Positions 4,940-64,000 of a stretch of DNA of 64,000 bases are shown here, piece by piece. The notes beneath the pieces are model-generated. The model ran no database searches. It saw only the letters and a program-made list of their open reading frames with translations, and was not told where the DNA came from. Each line of letters begins with the position of its first letter. Within the stretch, counting starts at the first letter, position 1. This DNA is from Eledone cirrhosa (lineage: Eukaryota), in the NCBI GenBank assembly GCA_964016885.1, contig OZ024756.1:44206001-44270000 (forward strand), given 5' to 3'. Both the position numbers and the translations under genes were made by a program.

Positions 4940-5087
4940 GATTTTGAGTTTATGTTGGTTGTATACCAACACCTCAGTATGCAGGCTGGAGCACTCGACG
5001 AAGTGCGCAGGTTGGTTTGGTTACTCCGGTGTAGTGTAAAATAAAGTTAAATAAAAGTCAAATGATTAAAAATTAGCTTCGTTTATT

Positions 5088-5142
5088 ACTGCTATATATA
5101 TTTCAGTGACAGCCATCTTTGGCTGTGACCTCTTCAGGCAGT
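5088..5142 (-). ncRNA. Type I hammerhead ribozyme motif (family A, left arm)
   Basis: Reverse complement of 5373-5427. Confidence 0.8.
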
Positions 5143-5372
5143 TTGAATTAGTATGGTATAGACAAGTACATATGTTGTTTAGGTGTATGATATTGTCAAT
5201 ACTCTGATATGCCCAGTTCCTTGTTGGGTTGTTAATTCACTGGGGAACTGGAGTCATATGACTCCAGTTCCCCAGTGAATTAACAACCCAACAAGGAACT
5301 GGGCATATCAGAGTATTGACAATATCATACACCTAAACAACATATGTACTTGTCTATACCATACTAATTCAA

Positions 5373-5427
5373 ACTGCCTGAAGAGGTCACAGCCAAAGAT
5401 GGCTGTCACTGAAATATATATAGCAGT
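5373..5427 (+). ncRNA. Type I hammerhead ribozyme motif (family A, right arm)
   Basis: Stem I ACTGC/GCAGT; core CTGAAGA; stem II ACAGCC/GGCTGT; GAAA; palindromic stem III ATATATAT; cleavage triplet AUA. Confidence 0.8.
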
Positions 5428-5717
5428 AATAAACGAAGCTAAATTTTAATCATTTGACTTTTATTTAACTTTATTTTATATATACATATATATATATACA
5501 TATATATATATATACATATATATATATATATATATACATATATACATATATATATATATATATATATACATATATATATATATATATATATATATATATA
5601 CATATATATATACATATACATATATATATATATATACATATATATATACATACATATATATATATATACACATATATATACATATATATATATATACATA
5701 CATATATATACATACAT

Positions 5718-6566
5718 ATCATCATCAACGTTTAACGTCCGTGTTCCACGCTTGCATGGGTTTGGACGGGGGTTTTCCCACTTGAGGCAAGAGTGATTGT
5801 CTTGCTTGCATAGGACTGTCTGGCAGGTTTTCTACAGTTGGATGCCCTTCCTAACACCAACCACATTTACAGTGTGGGTCTGGGAGGTTTTTACCATGTT
5901 GCCTACATGGCCACATTACAGCGTGGACTGTGTGTTTTTTTGTCGTGACACCTACACAATCTCATTTGTTTCGGCCTGGATGGTGTGGCACCAACATAAC
6001 TTTACATAGAAGGGGGGGGGGGGGGGGGATTTTGTTAGAGATGCCTACTGACTGTAGTAGGTTTTACTTTGTATTTAGGTAAGGCGGGTCTTCTCTATTA
6101 CTGAGTACCGCCAAAGGTCTCGGTCCAGTGACATTGTCTTGGTGAGGTGTAAGTGTGTGAGGTCGGAGTTTATCAGCTCATCCCAGGTTTTTCTGGGTCT
6201 GCCTATTCCGTGGCTACCGTCTATCTTTATTGCCCTGCACTTTGTTATACAGCTATCGTCCTTCATGCGCATCACGTGACCATACCAACGTAGCCTTCTC
6301 TCTAGTAAACAACATCTGATCCCTCTTATTTCTAATTTTTTCCTTAGTTCGTTTATGCTTTGTCGTTCACGTATATTACTATTACACATCCAGCGGAGCA
6401 TGCAAGCTTCGTTTCTCTCTAGTCTGCGTATATCCTCTGCACACAATGCCCAGGTCTCACTGCCATGCAACATTGCTGTTCGTATGCAGGCATCGTACAA
6501 CCTGCCTTTCATTTTTAGGGAGAACCCTTTAGCGGCTAATAGTGGTATGAGCTCTCTGAACTTTTT
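5718..6566 (-). mobile_element. RTE-clade LINE 3' fragment
   Basis: Peptide [39 protein letters not shown]...LRWYGHVMR...GRPRKTW (6075-6566), then 3' UTR and GGACGTTAAACGTTGATGAT tail. Confidence 0.9.
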
Positions 6567-6956
6567 ACATATATATATATACATACACATATAAAAACAT
6601 ACACATATATACATACATATATATACATATATATATATATACATATATATACATATATATATATATACATATATATACATACACATATATATACATATAT
6701 ATACATACACATATATATCATATATATATATATACATATATATACATATATATATATATACATATATATACATACACATATATATACATACACATACATA
6801 CACATATATATATACATACACATATAAAAACATACACATATATACATACATATATATACATATATATATATACACATATATATACATATATATACATACA
6901 CATATATATACATATATATACATACATATACATATATATATATATACATATATATG

Positions 6957-60170: not shown

Positions 60171-61041
60171 ATATATATATAAATATATATATATATAAAT
60201 ATATATATATATAAATATATATATATATAAATATATATATATATAAATATATATATATATAAATACATATATATATATAAATATATATATATATATATAT
60301 ATAAATATATATATATATATATATATATATATAAATATATATATATATATATATATATATATATATATATATATATATATATATATATATATATATATAT
60401 AATATATATATATAAATATATATATATATATATATATATATATATATGTATATATATATATATAAATATATATATATAAATATATATATATATAAATATA
60501 TATATATATATATATAAATATATATATATATAAATATATATATATAAATATATATATATATAAATATATATATATAAATATATATATATATATATAAATA
60601 TATATATATATAAATATATATATATAAATATATATATATAAATATATATATATATAAATATATATATATAAATATATATATATATATATAAATATATATA
60701 AATATATATATATATATATATAAATATATATAAATATATATATATATATATATAAATATATATAAATATATATAAATATATATAAATATATATACATATA
60801 TATACATATATATAAATATATATATATATATATAAATAAATATATATAAATATATATAAATATATATAAATATATATACATATATATACATATATATACA
60901 TATATATATATATATATATATATATATATATATATATAAATAAATATATATATATATATATAAATATATATATATAAATAAATAAATATATATATATAAA
61001 TAAATATATATATATATATATATATATATATATATATATAA
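60171..61041. repeat. Interrupted (TA)n/(TAAA) microsatellite
   Basis: Seen directly. Confidence 0.97.
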
Positions 61042-61563
61042 ACATAACTGTCTTTATCCCATTGCAGAAACTAATTAGTTGGAGTGAAAATTTAAGTAAG
61101 AAAAAAATTTTTTTTAAATTTTTTTAAAAAAAAAATATTTTCTTATTTTACGTCCTTTATATTATTGTTCTGCATTCTCCTGCATTGAACCACCTAGGTA
61201 CTATGACATAACCTGTGTATTTGCTGGCATGGGCGTGCATCTGTGCGCTTATGTTAGTTGATATATTAAATTATCTATATTTATCTCCAAATCACTGATT
61301 TGTCGAGCAAACTTGTCAAAACCACTTCTAAAAAAATTTTTTTTGGGGTGTTAGTAGGCGTCAGTCATCTTACCATCCCATTCCTTCTAACTAGCCTCTG
61401 TGTCACGTGATTGATTCTTTAGAATCGGCCATTTGACTTGAAGCAGTGAGAATTTCGGTACATAGAATCCAGTCCTCGCAAGCTGTTCGATCTACCGAAT
61501 TATTATTATTTTTATATGAGCCGCCAGTGTCCGCGCATTGCCTGGAGACTTAACTGAGAATAG

Positions 61564-61645
61564 ACTTCCTGATGACGCAATGAATTCTCGACAGTTGGAT
61601 TACATAACTGTCTTTATCCCATTGCAGAAACTAATTAGTTGGAGT
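61564..61645 (+). ncRNA. Type I hammerhead motif with long stem II (560-bp family)
   Basis: Stem I ACTTC/GGAGT; CTGATGA; stem II GCAATG/CATTGC plus GACAGTT/AACTGTC; GAAA; palindromic stem III ACTAATTAGT; triplet GUU. Confidence 0.82.
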
Positions 61646-62123
61646 GAAAATTTAAGTAAGAAAAAAATTTTTTTTTAAATTTTTTTTAAAAAAAATATTT
61701 TCTTATTTTACGTCCTTTATATTATTGTTCTGCATTCTCCTGCATTGAACCACCTAGGTACTATGACATAACCTGTGTATTTGCTGGCATGGGCGTGCAT
61801 CTGTGCGCTTATGTTAGTTGATATATTAAATTATCTATATTTATCTCCAAATCACTGATTTGTCGAGCAAACTTGTCAAAACCACTTCTAAAAAAATTTT
61901 TTTTGGGGTGTTAGTAGGCGTCAGTCATCTTACCATCCCATTCCTTCTAACTAGCCTCTGTGTCACGTGATTGATTCTTTAGAATCGGCCATTTGACTTG
62001 AAGCAGTGAGAATTTCGGTACATAGAATCCAGTCCTCGCAAGCTGTTCGATCTACCGAATTATTATTATTTTTATATGAGCCGCCAGTGTCCGCGCATTG
62101 CCTGGAGACTTAACTGAGAATAG

Positions 62124-62205
62124 ACTTCCTGATGACGCAATGAATTCTCGACAGTTGGATTACATAACTGTCTTTATCCCATTGCAGAAACTAATTAGTT
62201 GGAGT
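62124..62205 (+). ncRNA. Type I hammerhead motif, second copy (560-bp family)
   Basis: Identical to 61564-61645. Confidence 0.82.
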
Positions 62206-62764
62206 GAAAATTTAAGTAAGAAAAAAATTTTTTTTAAATTTTTTTTAAAAAAATATTTTCTTATTTTACGTCCTTTATATATAAATATATATATATATAT
62301 AAATATATATATATATAAATATATATATATATATATAAATATATATATATATATAAATATATATACATATATATATAAAAATATATATATATATATATAT
62401 ATATAAATATATATATATATATATATATATATAAATATATATATATATATATATATATATATATAAATATATATATATAGATATAAATATATATATATAG
62501 ATATAAATATATATATATATATATAAATATATATATATATATAAATAAATATATATATATATATAAATAAATATATATATATATATAAATAAATATATAT
62601 ATATATATATATATATATATATAAATATATATATATATATATATATATATATAAATATATATATATATATATAAATATATATATATAAATATATATATAT
62701 ATATAAATATATATATATATATATATAAATATATATATATATATAAATATATATAAATATATAT

Positions 62765-64000
62765 AATAAATAAATAACAAAGAACGCTTATAGCATATGC
62801 ATATCTTTACTTGCTAACATTGTTTCATCCACACTATAAGTGGGACTCATCAGAGCATAAAGGTTAAATTACATACCATACAAGCAATAACAAATCCAAG
62901 ACATTGAAGAATGAAGGTAATAATAGACGATAGAGGATAAGAATAAAAAGTAAATAAAAATAAAAGTGAAAATAAAAATAAAAATAAAAATAAGGGGTGC
63001 TATCTGTCACAGTTGGGCGGTGTGCTGTCAACATATAGTTACATACAAGTGATGTAATGTATTTATGTAAAGCGTATACTGTGATTTAGGCTGCACTAGT
63101 AGAAATTTAGCCTGTAACTGTGGCGGACCCGAGCCATCCTGCCGTAAGCAGTGGATACGTGGCGCATATATGTGTTGCCCTCATATTCTGTGGTTCAAGA
63201 TCTACAGGCTGACCTCTGGGAACTCTTACCCGGGGTTGTAGTCTTTCTGGCACGATCGGCCTTCCTTATATTGACGGTCGTTTTTATGATCCCGAAAGTA
63301 ACGTTTTGGCCCCGATGGCCCTCCGTAGTTACTAACGGTCTGTGTACACTCGAATCGGTCAATGGCACGTGCAGACATGAATATCTCCGTAGGATTTCAA
63401 CTGTATTTTAATACATCTCATCGTATGTATTTGTTTGAATATATTACCTGTGGTGGTGGGTCTGGTCTAATGTGGTATTTCGGTGTTTAATATTTAATAT
63501 TGTATTTAATATCGTATTTAATATCGACTTTGACCCGGGTATCCTACGCTGTGTGTGTGTGCGTGTGTGCCCGTGTATACATTTATATGTGTATGGGTGT
63601 AGGTGGTTATATGTGTCTGTGTGTATATATATAAAAAAATATATATATATATATATATGTATACCGTCTCTGCATGTGCATGTGGTGTGTATACGTGCAT
63701 ATACGTACTGAACATATTGATGTGTACAATCTTGTGATGTCCCAATGCGGTGACTTAATGGCTTTTATATTTTGTATTTTGCATGCGCTACAACTGTACC
63801 TGCTTGCTTTAACCTAACGCTTGCATGTGAATTCTTCTAACTCCTTTGATGCACCTTTCTGACCATTTGACTCCTGCCCGTGTTGAACCGGTTTGTGATT
63901 ACCCCACCGCTCGAGTGATACTGGTGACTGTGACACTTAGCGCCTTCGTGGGCCCCTGATGTTCTCAAGAAATATATATTTTTAAAAAATTGGTGTGTGA
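62765..64000 (-). mobile_element. Probable PLE-related element 3' region, runs off the window end
   Basis: Hammerhead next to (TA)n; TAAAAA repeats as in the PLE 3' UTR; CpG-retaining unique sequence; no recognisable ORF. Confidence 0.5.
62812..62857 (-). ncRNA. Type I hammerhead motif near the 3' end of a further element
   Basis: Minus strand TGCT-CTGATGA-GTCC CACT tat AGTG t GGAT-GAAAC aat GTT-AGCA. Confidence 0.8.

Follow-up and report, generated by a model that had tools for sequence, protein, structure and literature searches.

Truncated Penelope-like elements and retrozymes in TA repeats of Eledone cirrhosa have two fixed ends, mostly beside a bulged hairpin, that may mark reverse transcriptase start sites

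The window analysed here, a 64,000 nt stretch of Eledone cirrhosa contig OZ024756.1, had been described in an earlier note as carrying 19 type I hammerhead motifs, and reading of the core starts confirmed all 19. They lie at 5378 (+) and 5137 (-) in family A; 12827 (+), 12692 (-) and 30697 (-) in family B; 55399 (+) and 51776 (-) in family P; 57507-59047 (+, six motifs) and 57363 (-) in a 308-bp array; 60110 (+) and 59581 (-) in family C; 61569 (+) and 62129 (+) in a 560-bp array; and 62853 (-) in family D. A strict scan recovered 17 of them, missing both P motifs because their stem II fails the scanner's pairing rule, and an earlier, stricter version gave 6 matches only. By comparison, 200 block shuffles yielded a mean of 0.01 and a maximum of 1, and 200 whole-window dinucleotide shuffles read with the same scanner yielded a mean of 0.005. 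Stem III, claimed to be mostly self-complementary, is so in 16 of the 19 motifs (14 flagged by the scan and the two P motifs read directly), the others being both C motifs and the D motif. An Rfam scan of the window showed no hammerhead family among the 150 of 401 matches listed; these were miRNA matches driven by microsatellites, plus a single weak match of another kind.

The motifs fall in eight insertions. As had been proposed, all eight stand at TA-rich tracts where sequence is available, and seven carry an inverted arm, the exception being the 560-bp array. Families A (4938..5478), B (12504..12927 and 30507..30860) and C (59452..60170) are head-to-head remnants of PLE-A, PLE-B and PLE-C, each with an end called Y on the left and an end called X on the right; in A the left arm is minus and the right arm plus. 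The second B insertion has a full hammerhead at 30697 (-) and a partial one on its plus arm. PLE-P consists of a main arm (51672..55252, -), with a 5′-truncated ORF and a long AT-rich 3′ UTR, that continues past X into an assembly gap, and an inverted arm (55267..55500, +) that carries the hammerhead at 55399 (+) and ends at X. The gap, into which the left end of the P insertion runs, is 200 Ns long. In D, an inverted arm (62761..63049, -) with the hammerhead at 62853 (-) ends at X, and the main arm, the 3′ UTR of PLE-D (63049..64000, +), reaches the window end and runs about 1.2 kb beyond it to Y, followed by TA (locus L186). The 308-bp array (57170..59205) has an inverted arm on the left, ending at Y, and a tandem plus arm with six hammerheads on the right, ending at X, and the 560-bp array (61042..62280, +) comprises about 2.2 units, 5′-truncated without inversion, with end X.

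A, B, C, D and P each derive from a different autonomous Penelope-like element (PLE) of the Hydra clade, five in all, of which they are the 5′-truncated ends. Family A sequence flanks a PLE ORF in loci L183, L184 and L185; family B, which gave 13,935 exact 34-mer matches in a pattern search, is joined to PLE ORFs in L227, L228 and L231; a PLE ORF sits between two family C copies in L188; and family D has an 844-aa ORF in L181. The label "non-coding" that the earlier note had attached to A, B, C and D thus fails, each being the 3′ pseudo-LTR (pLTR) of its own autonomous PLE with an ORF elsewhere; the proteins of these four are 35-52% identical to one another. The two arms within one B insertion differ by 0.68 bases per 105, versus 3.25 between insertions (19 pairs), a similarity that could also stem from gene conversion or fold-back copying.

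A single protein-coding element had been reported for the window, and one long PLE ORF is present. This RT plus GIY-YIG ORF of Hydra type (53319..55253, -) covers codons 95-738 of the 738-aa PLE-P frame, without the first 94. A Pfam search of it gave no match, and the PLE-P protein has 56 homologues at E<=1e-20. Full single frames with RT and C-terminal GIY-YIG domains were found for P (738 aa), B and D; in the copies seen, the C frame has one frameshift and the A frame is in pieces. YRDD and the endonuclease motif were read directly in the PLE frames. DKT, the Hydra-clade change from DKG, occurs in P, A, B and D, the C frame examined not spanning it, and the N-terminal RWK position reads RWK in A, RWR in P and D, RWT in one tested B copy, and RWK or RWR in homologues. 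A CxCX5C linker, CxxC, and CxH near the C terminus were found in P, B, C and D, the four families covered by the pattern check; the second His of the CCHH motif was not seen when the P frame was read by eye.

Of these protein features, the C-terminal GIY-YIG, DKT, the RW[K/R] of A, P and D, the CxCX5C linker, CxxC and CxH are shared with the Hydra clade of PLEs (Craig et al. 2021, PMC8557442), which includes Hydra-1_Obim, and the assignment was made from such domains and motifs, with the published Hydra-1_Obim protein compared by eye. Two further features of that clade, a canonical type I hammerhead in the pLTR and insertion into (TA)n, were found here, as were its partial tandems and inverted 5′ arms. 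In contrast to the stated tendency of the clade to units of <3 kb, units here measure 3.6-5.3 kb (about 4.0 kb for P, 5.1 kb for D and 5.3 kb for C, the excess being mostly 3′ UTR). Tails are 67-100 nt rather than 30-40, and where one octopus family is listed for the clade, at least six, amounting to thousands of copies, co-exist here. Naiad and Neptune assignments were ruled out by domain order and by DKT versus DKG. Naiad/Chlamys PLEs have an N-terminal endonuclease and no canonical hammerhead; here the endonuclease is C-terminal and hammerheads are present.

In all seven families, insertions have two fixed 3′ ends, X and Y. Both sites are downstream of the hammerhead cut, at a distance of 22-200 nt. 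With X/Y windows set from end-position histograms, 264 of 266 sampled terminal copies ended at one or the other. The (TA)n association held beyond the window, (TA)4 being found at 261 of the 266 sampled ends; the corresponding fractions were 0.04 for random positions not preceded by TA and 0.16-0.23 for positions overall. The loci sampled were mostly top matches, which favours young copies. Of 78 head-to-head insertions, 77 paired an X end with a Y end (binomial p 3e-22 vs 0.5), including 28/28 among retrozyme arrays; this count leaves out pairs whose arms are separated by a (TA)8 run or by N, such as L213/L214 (both Y). Insertion junctions show TA microhomology.

At 10 of the 14 end sites, both those of the 560-bp retrozyme among them, a bulged hairpin stands 2-7 nt to the 3′ side, against a background rate of about 0.18 per kb; the motif was defined after inspection of these same families. 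Reference copies account for nine of these sites, and the tenth, B-Y, was seen in 3 of 5 run-on copies. The hairpin is absent at A-X, C-Y and both 308 sites. Examples in the window lie 3′ of X in B, inside the tail (12563..12587, -), 3′ of X in C (59497..59515, -), and 3′ of X (61727..61750, +) and Y (61844..61868, +) in the 560 retrozyme. Inner-stem sequences vary among sites with pairing kept, and several include G-U pairs; folded in isolation, ribozymes and hairpins were weak (z -3.0 to +0.3). One further strict match lies inside the C ribozyme, not at an end.

Predictions made from the hairpin were then compared with end positions in other hammerhead families. For F283, X was predicted before the search at +32..+40 and seen at +33/+34 in 5/5 partner arms, 15 of 20 regions having no partner arm within about 5.5 kb. 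For F008, a 457-bp retrozyme, the prediction, likewise set before the search, was +78..+86, and +81 was seen in 4 copies, one under the preset 5. In F277, P-like relatives and the shortness of the reference confounded the comparison. Among the other families with hammerheads in the loci, most did not contain the strict pattern, which matched 5 of 45 distinct copies. A literature search found no published description of the hairpin, nor of the PLE end signature on retrozymes. The hairpin is a likely signal by which ORF-less elements borrow the copying enzyme.

Within the window, only the 308-bp and 560-bp arrays can be classed as ORF-less retrozymes, a status towards which the earlier note had pointed and which their PLE two-end signature supports. 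Both are tandem and non-coding, with one type I hammerhead per unit and unit lengths of 308/310 bp and 554-560 bp; their longest stop-free frames are 59 and 52 aa, respectively. The five full units of the 308-bp array are identical, and its core has 4,596 exact matches. Nested neighbours aside, the loci examined for either array showed no joined PLE ORF; for 308/310 these included 30 positional loci, covering few distinct arrays, in which no attached Hydra ORF was found. Alignment of both retrozymes to the five PLE units in search of a parent gave only a 28-nt ribozyme core common to 308 and C; the 560 unit has the hairpin motif in common with the five PLEs tested, but no alignable sequence. 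A sequencing-run search with the 560 unit listed no RNA run. Self-cleavage and circular or linear monomer RNA are predicted from the features of the class.

We favour, at a probability of about 0.72, a reading in which these are recent TA-repeat insertions of five Hydra-type PLEs and two retrozymes, written by PLE enzymes from two fixed RNA sites that are mostly marked by hairpins. PLE machinery, TA targeting and inverted arms, all invoked earlier for this locus, are supported. From the family identities, the two fixed ends, the TA flanks, the XY pairing and the hairpin positions, we infer the following steps of cutting, binding, priming and joining. PLE reverse transcriptase/endonucleases likely wrote in all seven families. 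The enzyme, probably a dimer, would cut both strands within a (TA)n tract and bind the two hairpins; one DNA end would be primed at X and the other at Y, via a few bases of TA match, and the two cDNAs would run inward and be joined 5′ to 5′. With both sites downstream of the ribozyme cut, the template would have to be uncut or re-ligated RNA, and copying round a circle or along a multimer would give rise to retrozyme arrays. The 560 retrozyme, with both hairpins, is provisionally assigned to Hydra-type enzymes. The 308 retrozyme follows the X/Y rule without the hairpin, and we assign it no partner enzyme.

The reading originally put forward, in which the single PLE of the window mobilises in trans all six ORF-less families, each an independent small ribozyme RNA, can be given next to no weight. 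In its favour, the A, B and C insertions within the window contain no ORF, and five elements stand side by side at 51.7-65 kb, but a common TA target accounts for the clustering, and elsewhere each of A, B, C and D adjoins a PLE ORF of its own, which refutes the proposal for those four. The window ORF is itself 5′-truncated, starting at codon 95 of 738, and this copy is therefore unlikely to be a helper. A narrower proposal concerns the retrozymes, which might insert as single units through PLE machinery, with arrays growing later by local unequal exchange, a route discussed by Li et al. (2026, bioRxiv 10.64898/2026.07.22.740005). Speaking for such growth are variants present in some units of an array but not in others, of which the 22 arrays gave 7 cases; they include alternating units in L285 and L252 and, in L253, a spacing of 7 units. 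We nevertheless consider it unlikely, as arrays are dispersed, near-identical and often multi-unit on both arms of an inversion, array-private variants are fixed across arms (34 fixed, 38 singleton and 7 partly shared in the 22 arrays), and the alternating variant of L252 is present in both arms, which fits a two-unit template.

It is also conceivable that the hairpins act in DNA, the endonuclease trimming a longer cDNA/DNA intermediate nearby, so that X and Y would be resolution sites rather than RT starts. Craig et al. attributed the tail to endonuclease-mediated resolution, and Frangieh et al. (2024, PMC11167929) cite previous findings that recognition by the endonuclease required the tail. 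The latter study, however, found the tail ends of an anole PLE to be RT start sites in vitro, and the G-U pairs in several stems and the TA microhomology at junctions likewise argue against DNA-level trimming, which we regard as quite improbable.

The anole element, Poseidon, has two internal RT start sites bounding the tail, cuts both strands and is predicted to act as a dimer (PMC11167929). Two fixed start sites downstream of the hammerhead that bound a tail, an AT-rich target and an uncut RNA template are features in common with our proposal. Its sites are adjacent and fall within the ORF, where a single AC-rich stem-loop contains both, and neither strand is preferred in vitro. Those described here are separated by 26-120 nt and are located upstream of the ORF; most have a hairpin of their own, and 77/78 insertions use one site at each end. 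The arrays resemble metazoan non-LTR retrozymes (Cervera and de la Pena 2020, PMC7229834; Li et al. 2026) in their low-GC, non-coding tandem units of a few hundred bases, with one type I hammerhead per unit, palindromic stem III and PLE co-occurrence. There, the PLE link was inferred from co-occurrence and pLTR similarity, whereas the arrays here bear the signature of PLE insertion directly, in their X/Y ends, their head-to-head arms and their TA target. Minimal PLE hammerheads (Cervera and de la Pena 2014, PMC4209133) also have a short palindromic helix III, with dimer formation expected; family C, in contrast, has a 4-bp hairpin helix III, and several stems II here are long.

Although the element classes are already known, the finding bears on how retrozymes are mobilised in animals and how PLE RTs choose internal start sites. 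The genome offers a direct insertion signature tying retrozymes to PLE enzymes, a candidate RNA signal, about 25 nt long and open to mutation, and many near-identical, intact-looking ORFs usable for an in vitro test, and the near-strict one-X-one-Y rule constrains the mechanism. It also carries a caution: a short palindrome with a hammerhead in a TA repeat is in most cases a truncated PLE rather than a new small RNA. More tentatively, and with somewhat less than even confidence, we suggest that Hydra-clade PLEs across phyla may use the hairpin pair as rulers, with one RT per broken DNA end; retrozymes would then parasitise them by carrying the pair, and any RNA with the pair might be written into (TA)n from both ends. 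The main text of Craig et al. does not mention paired hairpins. Reading the published Hydra consensi by eye, we found four such hairpins in three of the six (coral, sea cucumber).

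The earlier note on this DNA took the hammerhead families A, B, C and D for independent non-coding ribozyme RNAs served by a single Penelope-like element (PLE), P. Each of the four flanks a PLE ORF elsewhere in the genome: family A sequence both precedes and follows the ORF in loci L183-L185, family B sits beside frames of 775-821 aa (L227, L228, L231), family C is found on both sides of an ORF carrying a single frameshift (L188), and family D flanks an 844-aa ORF within a 5.1-kb tandem unit in L181. The A-D insertions are therefore 5′-truncated, inverted PLE copies, a layout known from PMC8557442. 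The main arm of the D copy runs out of the window, and its end is seen in L186; for family B, a pattern search returned 13,935 exact 34-mer matches. The window's PLE-P ORF (53319-55253, minus strand) carries YRDD, a C-terminal GIY-YIG-like motif, DKT, CxCX5C, CxxC and CxH, the marks assigned to the Hydra clade in PMC8557442. When this ORF was used in a protein search, 69/69 scored candidates gave matches of 97-100%, and the majority have a frame of 738 aa; the window copy starts at codon 95 and is thus truncated. The five PLE proteins share 35-52% mutual identity, and a sixth Hydra-type family, F283, has a 3.6-kb unit (L346, L382-L401).

The motifs themselves are real and had been counted correctly: listing all CTGANGA cores in the window reproduces both the 19 motifs and the 7 families. 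Part of the earlier interpretation, that concerning A-D, was wrong. A strict type I scanner recovered 17/19 and missed both P motifs; two dinucleotide-shuffled controls, of 200 shuffles each, gave 0.01 and 0.005 matches, and the reversed window sequence gave none. Stem III is palindromic in 16/19 motifs; the computed duplex energies range from -3.2 to -10.5 kcal/mol and no palindrome was computed to fold as a lone hairpin, which fits the dimer model for hammerheads outlined in PMC4209133. The 19 motifs are carried by 8 insertions, 7 of which have an inverted arm. A degenerate, old hammerhead-like family lies beyond these (43776+, 42109-, 23878-, 44964-); its first three copies are 74-78% alike with broken cores or stems, and better copies were matched in L300, L302 and L312.

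The 308-bp and 560-bp arrays are two true retrozymes. They are dispersed and consist of head-to-tail units of near 100% identity, their longest frame is ≤59 aa, and comparison with the five PLE units revealed no alignable sequence beyond a 28-nt core common to 308 and C. Exact matches to the 308/310 core number 4,596. A third retrozyme, F008 (457-bp unit, L352-L381), forms arrays of up to ~18 units with two fixed ends. At L259:500-1500, the 5′ side of a 308 array is fused to the short end of another hammerhead element with no intervening TA tract. Across 22 arrays, 38 variants were singletons, 34 were fixed and 7 were shared among only some units; one variant occupies every second unit of both arms in L252, and variants are spaced by 2 and 7 units in L285 and L253. 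These patterns fit copying off circular or multimeric RNA, and the arrays may also have been enlarged by local duplication.

Every family has two classes of 3′ end, X and Y, whose offsets, counted downstream of the predicted hammerhead cut, are +52/+141 in P, +55/+155 in A, +48/+136 in B, +22/+91 in C, +55/+149 in D, +137/+163 in 308 and +80/+198 in 560. With class windows chosen after the histograms were inspected, and loci that are mostly best matches, 264/266 distinct terminal copies end in X or Y, and (TA)4 stands at the end in 261/266 (background 0.04 at random positions not preceded by TA, 0.16-0.23 at all positions). PMC11167929 showed that the tail of an anole PLE runs from one internal RT start site to another and that uncut RNA serves as template; X and Y would by analogy be RT start sites. 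Head-to-head insertions with both ends present have one X and one Y end in 77/78 cases (A 16/16, B 24/25, C 7/7, P 2/2, 308 10/10, 560 18/18), a count that leaves out pairs in which (TA)8 or N lies between the two arms, one YY pair among them. The rule extends to the window's D copy and to 5/5 F283 pairs. Arms of family B differ by 0.68 per 105 nt within an insertion versus 3.25 between insertions (19 pairs), which agrees with a single template and also with conversion or fold-back.

The families belong to known kinds of element, and Repbase or Dfam may already contain them. PMC8557442 describes Hydra PLEs that carry hammerheads and sit in (TA)n, one octopus family among them, and states qualitatively that a tail is often present at one end only, so the broad form of the XY rule is not new for PLEs. 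Retrozymes are proposed as PLE parasites in PMC7229834 and bioRxiv 10.64898/2026.07.22.740005; the new evidence pointing to PLE enzymes as inserting them is the XY rule in retrozyme arrays.

A candidate hairpin of the form [N][C/T]TC, inner stem, 2-nt T-led bulge, GA[A/G][C/T] begins 2-7 nt 3′ of 9/14 X/Y sites in reference copies, and follows B-Y in 3/5 run-on copies (background ~0.18 per kb). Inner stems vary between families with pairing kept. No hairpin was found at A-X, C-Y or either 308 site; one pattern match sits within the family C ribozyme. End positions predicted from the hairpin were recorded ahead of the search for three further families: F283 ended as predicted in 5/5, for F008, which has the hairpin after X, 4 X ends fell where predicted, one fewer than the preset number, and the F277 test was confounded. 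By eye, the hairpin is present in the published consensi Hydra-2_Amil, Hydra-2_Ajap and Hydra-1_Ajap, the last having two copies and beginning 2 nt ahead of the first; the 5′ stretches inspected of Hydra-1_Obim and Hydra-1_Crog had no strict match, and the Hydra-1_Amil consensus ends too early for this check. The terms 'hairpin' and 'stem-loop' are absent from the main texts of PMC8557442 and the bioRxiv paper, as is 'tail' from the latter. Neither the hairpin nor X/Y ends on retrozymes were found in the literature searched; the motif, like the families themselves, may be recorded in Repbase, Dfam, subscription papers or supplementary figures.

From the observed identities, ends, XY pairing, TA flanks and hairpin positions we infer an insertion mechanism in which both DNA strands would be cut within (TA)n, a dimeric enzyme would be positioned by the two hairpins, priming would occur through a short TA match, and two cDNAs would extend inward and join head to head; retrozyme templates would be rolling or multimer RNA. 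We put the explanation as a whole at a probability of about 0.72, holding the family identities more firmly than the hairpin's proposed role; the candidate shared start-site signal is testable. Most of the remaining hammerhead families in the loci fetched have no strict hairpin match (5/45 copies matched), so PLEs of other types probably rely on different signals. Additional hammerhead families inserted into TA and lacking the hairpin are those of L251, L092 and L119, of L203, L107 and L158, and of L065 and L204; the two fixed ends of the first lie at ~+124 and ~+179. A distant PLE bearing DKG (L189:2666-4741, L412), 24% identical to P and by its motifs presumably Neptune-like, is a possible partner class for such families.

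The window lies ~0.4 Mb from the contig end in a 3.0-Gb genome. TA microsatellites are abundant in it, and very long imperfect TA tracts flank insertions (3730-4939, 11090-15411, 55481-57183). A 53-bp satellite occupies 1-2098 (~40 copies, 96% match). An unbroken 903-aa LINE frame (8369-11077, minus strand) has Pfam matches to endonuclease and RT, its 5′ side being interrupted by a 4.3-kb TA-rich tract. Two short, mutually similar LINE-like RT fragments on the minus strand (2878-3261, which had no match in a Pfam search, and 6075-6560) we take to be RTE-type.
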